DNA of 63,966 bases, counting the filler, from Folioceros fuciformis (Eukaryota): the NCBI GenBank assembly GCA_049999805.1. It is 6 parts of 6 records of this genome, joined end to end, with 100 filler letters (N's around TTAATTAATTAA, not from the genome) between each part and the next. Parts side by side here need not be neighbours in the genome. Positions count along the whole stretch, not along the records: positions 1 to 21,622 come from JBNGIO010004456.1; 5 more parts are not named here. The stretch is one strand, 5' to 3'. Shown one piece after another: positions 14,700 through 24,700 of the stretch. How positions within the stretch are numbered: position 1 is the first letter of the stretch; each line of letters opens with the position of its first letter. Below the pieces are notes generated by a model. It was not told where the DNA came from. It worked only from the letters and a program-made list of their open reading frames with translations, and made no database searches. Both the position numbers and the translations under genes were made by a program.

Positions 14700-16652
14700 G
14701 ACTGTGGACATCTTCTCCTTCCTCACCTTCTTCGAATGCTTCCAGCTATTTGCAAGCTCAACAATGCTCTTTTTTCGTTTCGAACTATCACCAACACTAT
14801 TAATCGGGCTTTCACTTGTCGTAGCTTACATAACAGAATGTTGGCTCCAGCATATGCATGCTGAAGCAAAGAAGGATTTGCATATTGTACAAGATCCTAC
14901 AGTGCTTGAATTGTATACTCCCAATCTATGTATGAGCATTTTTGTAGCATAGCTTGAAGGTTGTTGGAAGCTTGCACCCCTCCGACACATGACGTGTCCT
15001 CTCCTACATGACAAGGTTTAGTGTTTGTTGAAGTATTGTTACATACAAGTGTGAGAAGGAGGTCCCGAGTTTAATGCAATTGCCCTTTCATTTGTAATAC
15101 CTTTGCTTAGTGTTTGCAGAAAAAGCCTTGCATTCCTCTTGGACAATTGCAGCATGCCCAGTCCCCTACAGGATTGTAAACTGTGTATATCAGCCTTTTA
15201 TCTATGTAGCTTTGCACAAGAGCTGGTTCTTGATCGTTAGTAGGAAGTGTAACATGGTCCTCAGGTATAGAATGAGAGCTCCTCACTGCATTTCCGATAA
15301 TCACCTCTTGCTTTCCATTGTGCTTGAAGCCATGTTGTTTTGTAAAGAGCTTGTGCTAATACACTTTGCATACTATATCCGTTAGTGTATGGAGCGACCA
15401 ATCCATACGCCGACCTCGCAGATGCATAAAATCATGGCTCAACATGGACTTTAAGAAGCCATGCCAAGCTTCAATTGATGAATTGCAGTCCTAGCCAGCA
15501 TGTGGCATGGTCCTGGAATACTTTAACTACATAGATAGCACCTCCTCCCACTGATTCTTGAAGTACTAAATGAACTTTGGAGCTTCTCTTTCATAATCCA
15601 CATATAATTGTTGTAGCATCTTCCTGGCCTCAGCTTCTGTGTGCCAACGACGAGAAACATACATGATGTTACCAAGGCGACTAAAGATTGCTACTCTTGT
15701 CCTCCACTACCTAACCTTAAGCAACAGGTGTCGTAGCCAACATTTTCTAACATGCCATAAACATAGCAAGATTGGCACAGCCTCCTCCCATATGGCTCGT
15801 AGAGCACCTATTTTAGTAGCAACATCATCCACAAGGAAAGCACTGGGTTGCCACAGTGGACTGTGATGCTATATATGCATTTGAAATGCATACAACCATG
15901 CCTGGATATCCTCCAATTTACTACTGTCCGTGATAATCCAAGCAGAAGGACTCCACTATAGTAAGTATCAAAGACCAACAAGGTGTACAAGTGGAACTTG
16001 TACTTATTGATTCCAAAAGTGGCATCAAGGGAGATCACACTATTATTTCCAAATTGAGGCATCATAAACCTCTGAAAAGTTGTTTGCACCCCTAGTGTAA
16101 AGGGGCCTGAATTGGAATGGTATCATACGATGTCATTGTGAGCTTCTATCCACATCTGAACACATACCTCATCGTTCGGAAGGTACTGGTAAAAGCATGT
16201 GGTAACAGTTGATGCAATGTTATCAATGTCATGAGGTTGAAGGAAGTCATCACGACAGGGTTCATAACTACATGCCTGTACTTTTAAATCCACTCTTTAA
16301 ACGTGCTCTAAATAGATTTGTCTTTTATTGGCTCCTGCAAACAGTCTGTGTTGGACCCATGTTCGTATCTCACTCCTCAAATGAGCAGCAAACCTTACCT
16401 GTGGGTTTGCATTGTACTGAGAGCAGTGACAAATTTCACCGGAGTTGTCAATGTGTTGGTTATGGACAATAGACACCGTTGCAAGATGAGGCCAACAAGC
16501 AAGCTGATTAACATCAAAGTGGTATTGACAACCACGCTTCACACTAGAGAGTCTTAATATCTTGCCTTTGCGTTTCCCTATGCTTTGAGATGCCTGTATA
16601 GCTAGCTCGTTGCTAAAAAAATATGTTCCTCCAAAGGCACACCAATAACAAG
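14700..16652 (-). pseudogene. MULE transposase/SWIM zinc-finger protein, central and C-terminal part (stops and frameshifts); lower boundary approximate
   Basis: YWCAFG...KRGCQYHF...HNQHIDNSGEICH; MULE core ISLDATFGINKYKFHLYTLLVFD; LCLWHVRKCW (CxxH); SWIM motif ACCNCPRGMQGFFCKH. Resembles the plant SWIM/MULE family of Arabidopsis At1g60560/At4g13970 (recognised from memory). Confidence 0.85.
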
Positions 16653-17100
16653 GTCTAACCTAGATAGGCGGATTCCGCCATTTCGGGCTTCGCGAAATTT
16701 TGACGCTCAAAATTCATGTCAGATATATGCATTTTCATGCGTTTTTTTCCAGGGATGCATAAATGTGGCGGAAAAGAGTATTGCTTACGAACGTAAACAT
16801 CAATTTTTTTCTAAAGTATAAGCAAATTTGCGGGTGTCCTTGCATTCAAATACATGATAAAACCCCGTAATATGGCGGGTATCACGTAATTCAAGTGTTA
16901 TCCGATTCCATGTAAGGTCCTGCGTGTTTGAGCTATACTTCATATCAGTTGACCCTATTCTTGAAAATTATCACCTGTCGATGTTTGTCTACATTTTCCA
17001 GAAAGGGTAGTGGGGTGCGCCGGTCAACCAGCGCCCTTTACCAAAGTAGCCCGGTGCACTTCAACTTGTTTTAGGCCGGTTGACCGACAATCTACCAAAG

Positions 17101-18085
17101 TCACATATATGGCAATTGGAAAGTGAAACTTGCCTGTCGCTCCATACAAAAGTTATCATACCAGTTTGTACTTAATACTTTTATCCAATCGTCTAACAAG
17201 TTTTCATTATTTTCAGGCGGTAGTGTTTTCTGGTCGCGATTGAGGACGTATAGGTCTCTACGAATCAAGGTCCTCGTGCGGGAGGAAAGCTGCTTTTGGC
17301 GTGTCAAATCAAATCCATATGCTAGAATGAAAGTGTCTTCAATTAATAATGTATCTATACGCTTCCGAAGTCTTCTGCTTGGCCTGCGTCTGTGACCTCC
17401 TTATGACCCTCTTTGCGGATCTTCATGCGGTAAAATCATCTCTTCTTGGTAACGACCCTCAAAAGCATCTGAACATTTGGTGACCCATTAGTGCACTTTC
17501 ACATATGGTTCTTTGCATGTAACATCAACCTCTAAGACTTTGGCAATCCAAAACGGCCTATTGTCTTCGTCAGTCTTGCAAGGGACAGCAATCATATGCC
17601 CTTTTTCTATTTCTGTTATGTCTCCGTTCAAACTTTCGCGGTCGTCACTGAGGTCCGCCTCCCTATGGTATGCACCCACATACATGTTTCTTCTGGGAAT
17701 CTCGCGGATTCGTGGATTGTGAACAATGATTTCGTCCGGAACAGTTACGGGTGCATTCAATAATTTTGCCGCCTCTCGATTATACCACCGCCAAGGAGAA
17801 TCAAGGTCTTTATCTACACCGGAGTTGATTGAATGCAAGATAGCCTCTTGCTCTGCCCAAAACCCATCCCACCACATGTTCTTGCCTGCTCCTAAGTGTT
17901 GTCCTAAACTCAACTCCAGTTTTGATATGATTTGTGCTAGATGATATTCAAGCACATTGTCCGAAACTGTCCTCTGTTTTTTGCTTCTAGATTGTCGATG
18001 TATAAATGGAGCAGCTTTGATATCTGTGTCCAGAATATGCTTGAGAAACTCGAAACCCTCATCTGGCGACCAATATTCATCTGTA
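17101..18085 (-). pseudogene. C-terminal fragment of a putative transposase-associated protein (SH3/Tudor-like tail)
   Basis: DEYWSPDEGFEFL...WWDGFW...GHMIAVPCKTDEDNRPFWIAKVLEV...VKVH*W...ILAYGFDLTRQKQL. The 5' part is missing and there are internal stops. The family assignment is tentative. Confidence 0.45.
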
Positions 18086-18098
18086 CAATACTCCCAAT

Positions 18099-18926
18099 GT
18101 GTACCTAGATGAAAACAAGTATGAATGGATGGAGGGGCATGTATATGCAGGACTAACAGAGGAGGAAATGAGAGTGCTCGCAGTAGATCATAATGTATAT
18201 GCAGATCAAAGAAAGAGAATGGGTTTCATTGAGCAAGTTCGGTATATCCATGACGAGCTTGATATCTGTTATAGAAAACACGGCTTGGATGAGAAGCCCC
18301 CTGTGAAGTGGAATTTCAACCTGTATAGGTTGCTTGGAATGACGGATGAAGGAGGAGACCCTTCGGACACTGATTGGGTGCAAAAAATAGTAGACAGGCA
18401 GACATTACCATATCGGGTGGCTAGGTGTAGTGGGATCCTATGGGAAAACGTAGACAGGATATTCTGAATGTGGGACTGGAGTGAGCTCCCTGAACAGATA
18501 GTAGGAGGAAGCTCTGGGACAAAGAAACGTGCAAAAGCCAAGAGGAAACCTAGGGAAGCTGGACTCGCTTCCAGTAATGCGCAAACGTCAGATGAGTCAT
18601 CGAAGAAGGTTGCAGCAATGCAGGGAAGGCCTTGGAGGGATTTTCAAGGAGTCCCAGCAGGGGTTAAAGGCGAGGAAATGCTTATAACTGTGACACAAAA
18701 GGTTATCCAGGGTAAGCTGCACCTGAAAGACGTGGACACAAAGGTAGGGAAAAAGAAAAAGATACATTTGATACAACATGCTTTCACGATGGCTTTGAAG
18801 TGTGCAACATTTGAGCAAGTGGAAGTCTTGTATCCCAAGCACATGGAAGACACACCTCTACTCAAGTTCCTAACTGCCTTCACAAAAGTGGTATGCTTGC
18901 TTTTCAAAGCCTTTAGATGTTTTTGA
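18099..18926 (+). pseudogene. ParB/Srx-like domain remnant plus helical region, with one in-frame stop at 18465-18467
   Basis: HVYAGLTEEEMRVLAVDHNVYADQRKRMGFIEQVRYI fits the ParB pattern V..L(T/S)DEEA..LAL.EN..R..L...E. The two listed ORFs share one frame. A possible splice donor GTG|gtatgc lies near 18890. Confidence 0.55.
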
Positions 18927-19182
18927 GCATGTTGGTTGGAGTGCGTCAAAAGACCGGCGCACTCCAGCTAATCTCTTGGGAATGCGCTGTTAAATAACAC
19001 ATTGCAGAAAAATGGCCGGAGTGCGCTGGTCTACTGGCCATTTTTCCGTAATGCGTTATACATTACGGAAGGGGTGCACGGGTCTACTGGCGCACTCCGG
19101 CCATTTTTTCGGAATGCATTATACATTACGGAAGGGATGCACGGGTCTACCGGCGCAGGGTTTTAGGGTTTTAGGGTTTAGG

Positions 19183-19881
19183 CATGGTGTTGTAGTGAAG
19201 AAACATTTGTTCTACTCGGCAGATTCTCTAGTTGTCTCGCCGTATCAAAAGCCCCTTGGTTTAATGGGTATGTTGGTGAATATGTTCTCCCCTAAAGGGA
19301 ACTGGGTAGTGGATGCTTGAGCAGGATCTGGGTCATTTCTATAGTCTACGATTCAAAGAGGAAGGCATGTTGATGCAGTGGATATTGATATAAGATGTAC
19401 CACTTACATCATGCAGCAGATGAATGGCCTAGGCTCTTCGCTAGACTCTGATGAGGAGATCAGCATAGAGCATTTCTTGCACGGGCCCACGAAGTTTTGG
19501 GCCAAAGGAGTCTGCGCGGATGGTAGCGTGGATCATTGGATGCAAGTATTCAGTTTGTTGGGAAAAAAAAGAGAGATATTTTCATAATCGGACGACACAC
19601 CAACGGAAGACCTTTATGCTATGACTATATGGGATGAGAATGGAACAATTCCGCCTGAGACTGAGGACAACCCGCATTTCTTTATTCTAGATGTAGAGGG
19701 GGACAACTTCGGAGACACACAGGGCCAGCGTCTTAAAGACGTAGATGTTGTAGTCGATTCTGAGGCCAATCAAGACATGTTTTTGTTTATAGGTGATTTT
19801 GAGAGTAGTGGAAGTGGATGGTATATTATGATTATGAACAAATTTGGCTATTTCGTTTTTAACTCCATGGGATGCAGATAG
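19183..19881 (+). pseudogene. Beta-class N6-adenine/N4-cytosine DNA methyltransferase, C-terminal (SAM-binding) part plus acidic tail, with in-frame stops
   Basis: One frame reads SPYQKPLGLMGMLVNMFSPKGNWVVDA*AGSGSFL*STIQRGRHVDAVDIDIRC. This matches the N6_N4_Mtase consensus HPTQKP..L...LI..FS..GD.VLDPFAGSGTT..AA...GR..IG.EID. Confidence 0.8.
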
Positions 19882-20156
19882 CCAGTTTCCTGTCCTTCAA
19901 ACATGCACTTTAGGGCGCCGGTAGACTGGCACACCGAAAGTAAGATTCTTTTTTTTCTCAAAGTTTTGGAGTTTGAAGGGTTTATGTACCACTTGGTTGT
20001 GGGCTTGAAGCAAATGTGTGAAGATCGATTATGTCTATCACACGTCAATATAAGTGGTTTTTAAAAAAAGGCAAAAAAGTGGATATGTGACTAGGATGGT
20101 GTAAATTCAAATGTGCACCAAACGGGCTTCGTGGAAAACAGCCGTCTGGGTTAGAC

Positions 20157-20486
20157 AAAGTATTGAATACTTGGTGTGCCTAAGCCAAGACCACATGTTT
20201 TGTCTACGTACAACGTTAGTTTCCCTTGCTGTTTTGTCAGCTTCTTTCCAGAACGAGATAGGAAATGAGCGATCCATACTAACTTCGTGGAGCAAGTCCT
20301 CCACTCTATCCCATCAATGATGGCAACATTAGACAACAACAGAGTACATTTTCTTTCAGGCAACACTTGTCTACCGATAACAGCAGAAGATAATGTCAAA
20401 TCTAGAACTTTGAAAGGACCTTGCGGTGGTTCTTGTACCTCCCACCCAATCGGCCAATCAAGACCAACTATTGCTTCTACACTCAT
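20157..20486 (-). pseudogene. N-terminal part of the MULE/SWIM gene, split off by the nested insertion
   Basis: MSVEAIV...VQEPPQGPFKVLDL...NVAIIDG/RVEDLL (frameshift near 20310) resembles the N-terminus of the plant SWIM/MULE family (VQDPP..F...DL...VALIPY.RVD.F). It continues in frame at 16652. Confidence 0.7.
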
Positions 20487-20519: not shown

Positions 20520-20670
20520 TTTAGAGTGAGTGATGAAGGCACTCGCGAGTTTGAGCGGTTGGTGAAGGCACTCACAAGTTTGAGCAGTTGGTGAAAGCAC
20601 TTGCAAGTTTGAGCGATTGGTGAAGGCACTCACGAGTTTGAGCGGTTGGTGAAGGCACTCGCTAGTTTGA
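20520..20670. repeat. 29-bp tandem repeat, about 5 copies
   Basis: Units of ggtgaaggcactcacaagtttgagcagtt. Confidence 0.85.
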
Positions 20671-21164
20671 GTGCATAATGTAAGTGAAATATAGAGCCTA
20701 ATAGTGTTCATGGTGTCGTGATCCATTTGTCCAAAAAATTATGTGGCATGTTGGCTTAACTACATACGATGCTTGGATGGATGCATGCTTGTAAGACCAC
20801 CACCAACATGCATCCCATATACCGGTGCATCCCACCGGAATATGAGTGGCGGGGACCACGTATGAAGACACACTTGCATTAATAACTTGACAAGTTTTAG
20901 GAATCGGGAGCAAAATTTTCCTGCACCTATGGCATAGCCAACGTTGTTTGCACAATTAATAAAATACTATAATTAATAAGTATAATATCTTCATCTCTAT
21001 ATTAATTTTTGTTAGAATGAAAGAATTTATCATATATTATTATTTTGCAATCAAATTATTGTGTCATGCAATAGTTCAAGAATAATATATTTTTATTTAT
21101 TTTTTTAATAAAAATAAGATGAAAATCCATTTACCTCAAGATAAATCTACGATTGGGACATCAG

Positions 21165-21604
21165 GGCTAAACCCTAAAGCCTAATGATTACCAATAGCAC
21201 CTAACCGCTTGAGGATTAATGACTACTAATAGCACTTAAACCCTTCAAGATTAATGATTACCAATAGCTCGTAACTCCCTAAGTCTAATGACTACTAATA
21301 GCACCTAACCCCCCCCCCCTTGAAGCCTAATAACTACTATTAGCACCTAACCCCTCTAAAGCCTAATGACTACCAATAGCACTTAACCCCTAAACTCTAC
21401 TGACTATCTAAAGACTAATGACTACCAATAGCACTTAACCCCTAAACTCTACTGACTATCTAAAGCCTAATGACTACCAATAGCACTTAACCCCTAAACT
21501 CTATTGACTACCAATAACACTTACTCCTCTAAAGCCTACTGACTACAAATAACACTTACCCTTCAAAAGTCTATTAACTACCAATAGCGCCTACCCCCTA
21601 AAGC
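21165..21604. repeat. Degenerate tandem array of about 33-36 bp with CCCTAAA-like cores
   Basis: ctaatgactaccaatagcacttaacccctaaa is repeated more than 10 times up to the contig end. Confidence 0.85.
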
Positions 21605-21622
21605 CTGTCTCTTATACACATC
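21605..21622 (+). other. Nextera/Tn5 mosaic-end adapter remnant (assembly artefact)
   Basis: CTGTCTCTTATACACATC is 18 of the 19 nt of the Tn5 ME and lies directly against the N run. Confidence 0.92.
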
Positions 21623-21722
21623 NNNNNNNNNNNNNNNNNNNNNNNNNNNNNNNNNNNNNNNNNNNNTTAATTAATTAANNNNNNNNNNNNNNNNNNNNNN
21701 NNNNNNNNNNNNNNNNNNNNNN
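21623..21722. other. Artificial spacer N44-TTAATTAATTAA-N44 (linker also at 30585, 49813, 59619, 62788)
   Basis: An identical 12-mer with stop codons in all six frames is centred in five N runs. Confidence 0.95.
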
Positions 21723-24700
21723 AAACTGCTGACGGTGGGGAAACTGCTGACGGTAGGGAAACTGCTGACGGTGGGGAAACCACTGAGGCAAGGGAAACTA
21801 CTGAGGCAGGGGCAACTGCTGATGCTGGGGAAACCACTGTTGCTGTGGAAATTTCTGTTGCTGGGGAAACCTCTGTTGCTGGGGAAATCTGTGCTGCTGC
21901 AGAAATTGCTGTTGATGGGGAAACTGCTGTGACTGTAGAAACCGCTGTTGTTGTGGAAACTGCTGTTGCTGTTGAAGCTGCTCATGTCAAGGAAAATGCA
22001 GGTGCTGGGGAACATGCTGCCGCAGTGCAAACCATGGTTGCTGTGGAGCCTGCGGTTGTATTGGAAAATACTGAAAATTTGCTGGAGCTTGGTCCTCTTC
22101 CAGTTGTTCGCAGAGCGTCCCCACAGTTGGCGTACAGGAAGAGACCAAAGCCTGCTGCGGTGGTTAAACCCCCGCAGCTGGAGGTTGCTCCACTGGCATC
22201 TGCTCCAAATGGTGTAAATAAGGCTGATGTTCCAGATGTGAAGGAAGAAAAGCCTAAGCAAGTTAGACGCAAGCAAAAGAAAAACATTGCCAAGACAACA
22301 ACTGTCAAGGTGAAGAGGAGGAAACAGAATAGGGATGAGAGTGATGAGGGCGAGGCTTCACTAGGAGAAGAGAGCGGTGGCTCTGACAACAAAGATGAAG
22401 ACTTCTCACCAGGTCAGGCTCCAGAGGCTGAAGGTGAAAGCCCTCAAGATGATAAAGTGAGGCATAACAGAAGAGTGAAAAGGAATTGCACATTGAAGGC
22501 TGTGTCTAAGACAACATCTTCGTCTGCTATGCTTAAGAGTAAAAAGCCTGCAGGGACGAAGGTTCCAAAGGGAGGGAAACCAGCTGGGATGGCTGTGGAG
22601 AAGTGCACCTCCAACTTCAGTGAAGATGTGGGTGGACTTGATGGGTATCTATCTGTTCCTGAGAAACTTGTAGAGTCTGGATCTGACTTAGGAAGTAAAC
22701 CCCTAGTTGCAAAATCAGCAGCTGCAAAGGAGAAAACACTGCAGAAAGTTGAAGGAGAACCTGGCAAGTCAGGGCAGCAAGGGGATACACCAAAAGCTGA
22801 CGTCAAGGTTCCAGCAGCTGGAGTCTATCAGCGTCGGAGGCCTGGGCAGAAGTCGCAAGTGCCTGCCACCACAATCTTGGTATGTCTATTCTGACTCCTT
22901 TTGTTGCTGTGCTGTGTACTTATCGGTCAACCAACCAGACCCCTCGTTCCTGCCTACAGGATAGCAAGGCTACGGTTACCAAGTCTAAGCTTGAGGATCG
23001 AAATAAATCTGGTGGTCCTGGGGTAAGCGCGAAGTCTGCATCTGCAGGCGTACAATCTGAAAAATCATCACAGCTGAAAAGACGGAGGGAAGATGATATC
23101 AGGAAGGGCAAGCTCAAAGCAGAAGTTGGCAAAGAGGCAAAAGAAAGGGTATCTCAACAATCCGGCATCAGTAAAATTGCTGCTGCAGGGAAAAGAGATC
23201 CGGATGATAACCTCCCTCTAATTAAAAGGGCCAAGGTACGTGGTGACAAGGGCTTGTGGCATGCTGATAGAGATAGAGGCGGGAGTAAAATAAGGATGAA
23301 GGAAGCATCTGAGCAGCCAAAACTGGGAGCAGCACCATCTGCAGAGCTTGAAAAGAAGCCCAGGATTGATCAGATTCTGGCGAAGCCAAAGAATTCTGAC
23401 AGGGGAACAGTACTGCCTCCGAAGGCAGATAAGTCAAGGATTAGAAGTAGTTTGGCAGATGAGGAGGCAACACTGCCACCTTCAAAGAGGATACATCGTG
23501 TTAATGAAGCCTTGGCAGAGTGTGCTGCTGAGGCCTCTACTGCTGCAAGAGATGACCCTGTGAAGTGTGCTGAAGCTAGCCTGGACAAGTCTTCCACTCC
23601 AAGGATGCGAATTGAAACAGGGGTTGCTGATGCACAAGCTGGTGAACCCGTGCACACGACAGTGGATCAAGGCTTTAGAGAGAGAAACGAAGAGGGAAAA
23701 TCGCCTGCTCCCAGTAGGTTCTCTCCTTTGAAGCATCATCGCTTTACTGGCGATCAAAAGGGCACAGGTGATATGTCAGAAGTGAAAGGGAAGCTGACGA
23801 AATTGAAAAGACAACAAACTCCAGGTGGGGAAAGTGCTGGGAGTCCATTTGTGCATGGCAGCGACCCTTCAGACGCCTCTGCTCGAGGAGTCTCAAATGG
23901 GGTGAACTCTCTTGGAAGTTCTGATGTTGGCGGTTCGAGAGGACGGCCTGAAGACCCTGTCAACAGAGTTAGACAAGCGTAAGAATCTTGTTTAGGCTGA
24001 GTGTTCGTGCTTCTAAACTCATGCTTCTCATTTAGTCTGAGCTCTCTTTCTTGACTCAATGGCAGGTATGAAGCAGCGAAGGAGAAGCAAAAGCGGATCT
24101 CCAGGGAAGAGGATCCTTCTTCGTCAGCATCTCTGAAGTATCTTATTGCCCAAGCACAAGCTGCCCAAGCACAGGCCAAAAAGCAATCTCGTCACATGAT
24201 GAATGTTCCGGACATGATGGTACCTGTAGTGACAAGTCCCTCACCTATACTTCGAAGAGGGAGCTCACCGGTTCAAAATTTCGGCACTTCACAGGATGTT
24301 TTGAAATCAGGGCCGTATTCAGATTATACATCAGCTGATGCATCAAGGTTAGATGCCTACGGCTATGGACCAAGTCAAGGGCCTGGTATATCAGCTAGAG
24401 ATGGTGAATCAGCAGAAGAGAAAGAAAAAGCAACAGCACGGGAGGCGTTTGAGGGCATGCTAGAAACACTGTCTCGGGCGAAGGACAGTATTGGGCGAGC
24501 CACTCGCCATGCCATTGAATGCGCAAAGTTTGGCATTGCTGACCAGGTGAGCACCGGTCTTTCTTTGGGGTGATACGTTTTGTGTGTTTTCTTGTTTACT
24601 TGAAACTTCCGGTTTGTTAACTGCAACTGCGACATTTGTCTCAATATCAGTACACAGCTTCACCTGTAAGGTTTCTTGATGTGCCTGGTGCAATGCAGGT

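Follow-up and report, generated by a model that had tools for sequence, protein, structure and literature searches.

Structure of the locus

The DNA analysed here (the window) is a stretch of 63,966 nucleotides, joined from six parts of the Folioceros fuciformis genome assembly GCA_049999805.1; its positions 1 to 21,622 come from JBNGIO010004456.1. At positions 16647-20164 the window contains a real insertion, a transposon with terminal inverted repeats (TIRs) that interrupts the transposase gene of a Mutator-like element (MULE). The original prediction, made from the sequence, had recognized that a TIR element lies within a MULE gene and had noted that its termini are not those of CACTA, hAT, Mariner or MULE transposons, and both statements held. 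The host gene was verified as a MULE gene by an uninterrupted paralogue, which scored 28.1 bits against PF10551 (Pfam cut-off, 27.6 bits). In the window it is a minus-strand pseudogene, of which the downstream part extends approximately over 15107-16642 and the upstream part lies at 20169-20460, 20460 being the last position checked.

As predicted, the element carries two genes that diverge at about 18092-18100 and whose 5′ parts are deleted. The minus-strand gene (17101-18092) is the C-terminal remnant of a DUF7869 transposase with a catalytic triad of three aspartates (DDD); its N-terminus and catalytic domain are deleted and it contains stops. The plus-strand gene is a cargo gene for a methyltransferase, which had been overlooked. 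Its first remnant (18100-18890), with one stop, is an exon encoding the C-terminal half of a probable ParB-like domain and a helical region. A probable intron remnant follows on the same strand (18891-19179), inferred because homologous proteins run through this point in one chain; it contains a TTTAGGG run and copies 2-4 of a 22-bp palindrome (at 18941, 19074 and 19137), and it ends at a deletion. The last remnant (19180-19791, plus strand), with three stops, encodes the C-terminal half of a beta-class amino-methyltransferase, including a QKP motif and the S-adenosylmethionine (SAM)-binding motif I, and an acidic C-terminal region.

Compared with full copies, the window copy lacks about 4.5-4.7 kb at 18092/18100 (junction at 18093-18099), in agreement with the internal deletion that had been predicted. 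A second deletion of about 0.7 kb near 18965-19180, missed in the prediction, removed sequence that includes motif IV of the methyltransferase. The window element is thus a dead, twice-deleted, non-autonomous derivative of elements of 8-9 kb. Among 41 matches, its first junction was found at one other locus (C4978), which is 91% identical, has different flanks and is without a target-site duplication (TSD). Because the deleted form is present at two loci, it was probably mobilised in trans. The left arm of the window copy is 81-85% similar to one subfamily and 69-70% to another, and the right arm is 89-91% similar to copies whose left arm is only 68-70% similar; judging from these similarities, the window copy is likely chimeric. 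A de novo telomere filler as the source of the TTTAGGG run was rejected, as similar runs occur in the intron of two other copies (L089 and L092).

Ends, target-site duplication and empty site

The inverted motifs GTCTAACC were located at 16653 and 20156, as described in the prediction. The terminal sequences are repeated in the 87-Mb genome of F. fuciformis (G000), with at least 40 matches per end, and in 12 other copies a left and a right end face each other. The boundaries at 16653 and 20156, by contrast, had to be moved, the true start being 6 bp further out at 16647. Among 83 ends of the 16653/20156 type, the bases at -6 to -3 outside were A, A, C and A in 72, 74, 68 and 76, and the family termini are AACA..TGTT. 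A second family copy, in the MULE paralogue L103, begins with AACAAG straight after a host sequence that is uninterrupted in the window at 20425. It is an independent insertion (from position 1304 of L103, G000:C4365) that lies in the opposite orientation, about 260 bp away from the site used in the window, in a gene paralogous to the host MULE. TIR bases 5-6, after AACA, have conserved neighbours but vary freely, both from copy to copy and between opposite ends of a single copy.

The family TSD is 4 bp long, where a duplication of 0 or 3 bp had been proposed. It is perfect in eight of the 12 complete copies at offset +6 (AGAT, CTCC, GAGT, CTCT, ATAG, TTAT, ACTT and CAAG), whereas every other offset from 0 to 10 gave a repeat of at least 3 bp in at most one of the 12. 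In the remaining four pairs, three of four bases (L138), two of four (L005) and none (L077 and L140) matched, and the end of L140 is probably false. The window copy has CAAT on the left (16643-16646) and GAAT on the right (20165-20168), a match at three of four bases. The left TIR, of about 30 bp and starting with AACA, lies at 16647-16676 (plus strand), as given by the family alignment and the start point of L103. The right TIR lies at 20135-20164 (minus strand) and has an aberrant tip, in which the 8 nt AAAGTATT stand in place of a family 6-nt tip such as CTTGTT. This tip and its flank form a short hairpin (20157-20175; AAGTATT-G-AATACTT), and the 23 bp of the empty site are themselves nearly palindromic. 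The aberrant right end may have arisen by local template switching.

Five of six MULE paralogues have an empty site with a single CAAT (TAAT in one of them, by C>T), in frame as HTKYWCAFGG; the sixth has a local deletion there. None of the six has the extra 18 nt of the empty site on which the prediction had proposed to be tested, and the true site is 18 bp shorter. The restored reading frame, which had been taken to fix the boundaries independently, is a coincidence: the longer join stays in frame because 4+8+6=18. The conserved outer bases, the TSD offset, the empty sites of the paralogues and the start of L103 therefore place the element at 16647-20164. A Spy-like assignment was ruled out by the presence of a TSD, since Spy-like elements are not known to make a target-site duplication.

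Transposase and superfamily

Complete relatives of the window element range from 1.4 to 8.9 kb, and the full elements (8-9 kb) have TIRs of about 30 bp. These encode the DUF7869 protein (E 5e-50; 92 matches in the genome) on one strand, and on the other an open reading frame (ORF) without a library match and the cargo gene. Among longer proteins, 32 DUF7869 homologues were found, the named ones being from Riccia (22) and Ceratopteris (1). The DDD triad corresponds to D64, D146 and D188 in copy L094; in 26 sequences D146 and D188 are invariant and D64 is nearly so. The modelled transposase has an RNase H fold, with Mos1 in the top row (Z 8.0, root-mean-square deviation 3.9, 158 aligned residues) tied with integrases, and a Foldseek search with the model gave no match at E<=0.001.

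Scored against the Sola profiles of the PMC5751038 supplement, 21 ungapped columns around the second aspartate gave 25.2 bits for Sola1, 10.7 for Sola2 and 8.5 for Sola3, and a second block gave 17.8 bits for Sola1 columns 110-124 (the only profile used for that block), all being partial, ungapped scores rather than those of a full hmmsearch. From these scores we consider it quite probable that the transposase is related to Sola1. Sola elements are described as having a DDD triad, a 4-bp TSD, TIRs of 11-1124 bp, a size of mostly 2-9 kb and very variable termini, and as known from moss (PMC10741241, in the part available). The present family agrees with Sola and Sola1 in the DDD triad, the D-N-x-A-x-x-N-K-N and F-L-x-x-G-H blocks, the 4-bp TSD, the short TIRs and the size of 8-9 kb. 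It differs from Sola1 in its AACA..TGTT ends, the DGMDQ motif at the first aspartate and the absence of an AWWT preference, only a minority of the perfect TSDs coming near AWWT. It also has a conserved cargo gene, a feature not mentioned for Sola in the text available. Among the superfamilies that had been suggested (Sola, Harbinger, Zisupton/KDZ and Plavaka), Sola is the one that fits, by the Sola1 score, the DDD triad, the 4-bp TSD and the size. On this comparison the family is best filed as Sola, nearest to Sola1, though not as a proven member of it.

Cargo gene

The last cargo exon of the full copies matches N6_N4_Mtase (PF01555) above the cut-off. The cargo gene joins a probable ParB-like domain and a helical region to a beta-class N6-adenine/N4-cytosine amino-methyltransferase, whose C-terminal half is kept in the window. 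In the structural model of the methyltransferase, the predicted local distance difference test score was mostly 80-97 over residues 21-290, except 181-200. Its fold matches were CcrM, RsrI, MboIIA, BceJIV and PvuII (best E 1e-14), with METTL3 appearing from rank 40. Motif IV precedes the SAM-binding motif I, the permuted order of the beta class. The catalytic motif departs from the (D/N/S)PP(Y/F/W) pattern, as motif IV reads DxPRG in this clade and not DPPY. Of 21 homologues outside this genome, 15 have DxPY at motif IV and two, at 30% identity, have DLPRG.

A HMMER profile search with the methyltransferase found 231 proteins at E<=0.001, 26 of them at 1e-10. Of 20 top hits, seven belong to named plants (three to Chara, two to Adiantum and one each to Riccia and Ginkgo) and 13 have no organism attached. 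From this search P0042 was discarded as a spurious repeat match, and P0079 and P0083 are canonical PF01555 proteins that match the C-terminal half only. When longer proteins were searched by word index for the methyltransferase core, none of 674 candidates matched. Several homologues are single polypeptides that combine the methyltransferase with the upstream domain, and we therefore infer that the two are one spliced gene here. By language-model features of the Atlas the upstream domain resembles DUF3723 (0.95) and ParB_N (0.92, the latter with only 123 shared features), while sequence searches of Pfam, PHROGs, NCBIfam and PDB gave no match for the ParB-like region.

Between subfamilies, the methyltransferase had a ratio of nonsynonymous to synonymous substitution rates (dN/dS) of 0.09, the transposase one of 0.10, the ParB-like region one of 0.07 and the unmatched ORF one of 0.08, from sequence pairs that are not independent. 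Within subfamilies it was 0.4-0.6, as expected for decay after insertion. These values indicate purifying selection between subfamilies, with the methyltransferase as constrained as the transposase. The unmatched ORF (L094 4175-4738, minus strand) lies between the transposase and cargo genes and is present in distant families too; it had no match in Pfam, PHROGs or NCBIfam and no usable match in the Atlas.

Palindromes

A second, subterminal inverted pair had been described in the window copy. It exists, at 17014-17037 and 19912-19935, but not as a pair in its own right: a 22-bp palindrome, GTGCGCCGGT-NN-ACCGGCGCAC, is present five times in the window copy, and the two arms are its copies 1 (17015-17036) and 5 (19913-19934). 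Fourteen related elements each contain 3-13 copies at constant sites that seem to be non-coding, namely a single one in the subterminal region of either end, always at the same position, and groups of them between the coding blocks. Most copies are clustered 2-2.7 kb inside the elements, in probable introns. The rest of the window (60 kb) and 30 shuffles contain no copy of the palindrome. Genome-wide there are 64 exact sites against none for the reversed control, and related GC-rich palindromes were found in three of four divergent loci. Short non-autonomous derivatives (L005/L078, 1736 bp, and L008, 1440 bp) have kept both TIRs and 3-7 palindromes.

Linkage of cargo and transposase

The genome contains 154 methyltransferase matches, many of them pieces. 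A head-to-head arrangement of the transposase and methyltransferase genes is retained at five loci where methyltransferase identity is no more than 33-41%, these loci having been picked because matches to the two were near each other. One of them (C6081) is a complete element of 8060 bp with AACA..TGTT ends and an ATAA duplication. A scan of the five for TIRs and TSDs was convincing for C6081 and weak for C6281, and it found no ends in the other three, in the close copy C6294 or in eight further DUF7869 loci. Those eight, out of 20 planned, included one where the ParB-like part runs to the end of its contig, two with the unmatched ORF only, two at contig edges, one interrupted and two free of cargo.

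Riccia has 26 family genes and 22 listed DUF7869 genes, and two of the former are at most three locus tags away from one of the latter (P about 0.007, a value that presumes tags in gene order and ignores the clustering of repeats), which lends weak support to an old association of cargo and transposase. Among metagenome contigs, where the alignment was too divergent for a linkage test, a single-protein scan gave 0 of 100 stretches, a result without bearing on linkage.

Possible role of the cargo and alternatives

The superfamily is known, and for the cargo no earlier description was found: in the titles and abstract openings searched, which leave most subscription papers and Repbase outside, a TIR transposon with a beta-class amino-methyltransferase is undescribed. 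In the same literature 'DUF7869' is not named, in keeping with the poorly described family that the original prediction had suspected. Like CcrM, M.RsrI, M.MboIIA, M.PvuII, rotifer N4CMT and Marchantia DN4MT1, the cargo methyltransferase has the permuted motif order, PF01555 and the same fold. It differs from these beta-class enzymes in its motif IV (DxPRG, or DxPYG in relatives, versus DPPY or SPPY) and in its fusion to a probable ParB-like domain. N4CMT and DN4MT1 are host genes (10.1101/2021.02.12.428880 for the 4mC [N4-methylcytosine] enzyme of Marchantia), whereas the present gene is inside a transposon. Other mobile elements with their own methyltransferase are known, namely DIRS elements with an N6A domain (PMC4738411) and the DNMT elements of Symbiodinium and Klebsormidium (PMC5890265). 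These are retrotransposons with a PCIF1-like or C5 enzyme within a polyprotein, in contrast to a separate beta-class gene in a cut-and-paste element here. In its accessible part, the survey of Iyer et al. (PMC4738411) lists six group-1 eukaryotic clades, none of them in land plants or tied to such elements, and attributes few N6A methyltransferases to land plants.

We lean slightly towards the view that this is a Sola1-related transposon whose accessory protein acts on the DNA of its own element, by analogy with the VANC anti-silencing proteins. VANDAL elements are themselves MULEs, and ParB proteins load at palindromes. According to PMC5735166, the arrays of motifs to which VANC binds lie in introns and at the non-coding termini of the elements. 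VANDAL elements with VANC resemble the present family in two respects: the accessory gene is under constraint, and intronic and terminal non-coding DNA holds arrays of a motif specific to the family. In the part of that paper available, no methyltransferase domain is described for VANC, and anti-silencing is shown for VANC but would be an extrapolation for the cargo. The cargo protein would be kept because it helps the element to spread. Its N-terminal part would be drawn to the 22-bp palindromes of the element, both subterminal and intronic, and the SAM-dependent domain would act on the palindrome-bearing DNA, by N6-adenine or N4-cytosine methylation or by base-flipping and shielding. As a result, host silencing by 5-methylcytosine (5mC) would be countered or transposition licensed, as VANC serves VANDAL. 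We give this chain of steps, taken as a whole, about an even chance. The methyltransferase cargo may in this way aid escape from host silencing. Rather doubtful is the wider proposal of an old clade of cut-and-paste elements in streptophytes that combines an active bacterial-type DNA methyltransferase, ParB-like loading on palindromes, a self-written mark other than 5mC and escape from silencing.

Several observations weigh against an element-directed methyltransferase in a Sola1-like transposon. Motif IV lacks its aromatic residue, with R in eight and Y in none of the 11 divergent genome copies read; in rotifer N4CMT, activity was abolished when Ser and Tyr of SPPY were replaced (PMC8885841). 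The ParB label comes from a single language-model search. The termini and the TSD sequence differ from those of insect Sola1 examples. Nor is the cargo universal: no transposase was present in the stretch fetched for six of 11 divergent methyltransferase loci, two of the eight further DUF7869 loci have more than 5.5 kb upstream and no cargo, and 24 of the 26 Riccia family genes are not beside a listed DUF7869 gene. The CpG sites of the palindromes are decayed by about 10-20%; this decay indicates that dead copies were methylated and so not protected, and nothing beyond that.

The methyltransferase could instead be catalytically dead in this clade, as its DxPR motif would suggest. Its retention would then reflect a structural or DNA-binding partnership with the transposase, for which the palindromes would be ordinary binding repeats. 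The loss of the aromatic residue of motif IV speaks for this, as do the palindrome at a fixed subterminal site at each end, the 3-7 copies kept in derivatives of 1.4-1.7 kb, and the precedent of DIRS1, whose N6A-methyltransferase domains are called likely inactive in the accessible text of Iyer et al. (PMC4738411). Yet motif IV keeps its D, P and G, conservation extends to the QKP motif and motif I, the R of motif IV also occurs in the two outside homologues at 30% identity, and most palindromes lie 2-2.7 kb inside the elements in probable introns. We regard a dead domain as fairly unlikely.

A different objection is that the elements may fall outside Sola1-3 and form a lineage of their own next to these, marked by DGMDQ and by AACA..TGTT ends. 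The accessible part of PMC3845634 calls the AWWT target a hallmark of Sola1 and gives insect Sola1 examples that begin with GGACC; the present family begins with AACA and its TSDs are not AWWT. Moreover, no clear equivalent of the R conserved at Sola1 column 58 is seen in the family, and AACA..TGTT ends were found again in a distant family. Against a separate lineage stand the clear preference for the Sola1 profile at two blocks of the catalytic region and the description of Sola in PMC10741241 (DDD, 4-bp TSD, 2-9 kb, very variable termini, known from moss). We judge a separate lineage unlikely.

We find it quite improbable that the enzyme is active on RNA, on transcripts of the element, as many eukaryotic N6A methyltransferases are. 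Repeated shifts from DNA to RNA among these enzymes (PMC4738411, in part) and the presence of METTL3 among the fold matches would agree with such a role, but DNA enzymes of bacteria and phages rank highest among the matches, and the fused N-terminal domain looks ParB-like. Finally, ends at 16653 and 20156 with no duplication or one of 3 bp at a palindromic target, as first proposed, have next to no probability: the join keeps the MULE frame, but the empty sites of five of six paralogues, the TSD offset test and the insertion in L103 contradict such ends, and the paralogue empty sites and offset test also rule out a palindromic target without any TSD.

An element-directed methyltransferase bears on the question whether there is real N6-methyladenine (6mA) or 4mC in land-plant DNA and which enzymes write it. 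The family offers a multi-copy, transposon-borne candidate methyltransferase under strong constraint together with a candidate target motif, so that direct testing is possible. If the proposed role is true, counter-silencing encoded by transposons would extend beyond VANC. If the wider, rather doubtful proposal of an old clade with an active enzyme is true, charophyte algae, liverworts, ferns and Ginkgo would have an unrecognised source of 6mA or 4mC, and DxPR would be a new active-site variant. At minimum, the ends, the TSD and the gene content of DUF7869 transposons are now defined.

Other features

One locus (L079, G000:C4311) has two identical left ends with identical flanks at 292 and 1221, 929 bp apart, which represent either a tandem duplication or an assembly artefact. 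Past the gap that follows the first part of the window, a long plus-strand gene with 18-bp repeats lies at 21705-24570. Its last ORF has no Pfam match and is presumably reminiscent of the plant HUA2 family. Upstream of the MULE coding region there are tandem repeats of 29 bp (20521-20671) and of 34-52 bp (21172-21614), both possibly part of the MULE end.

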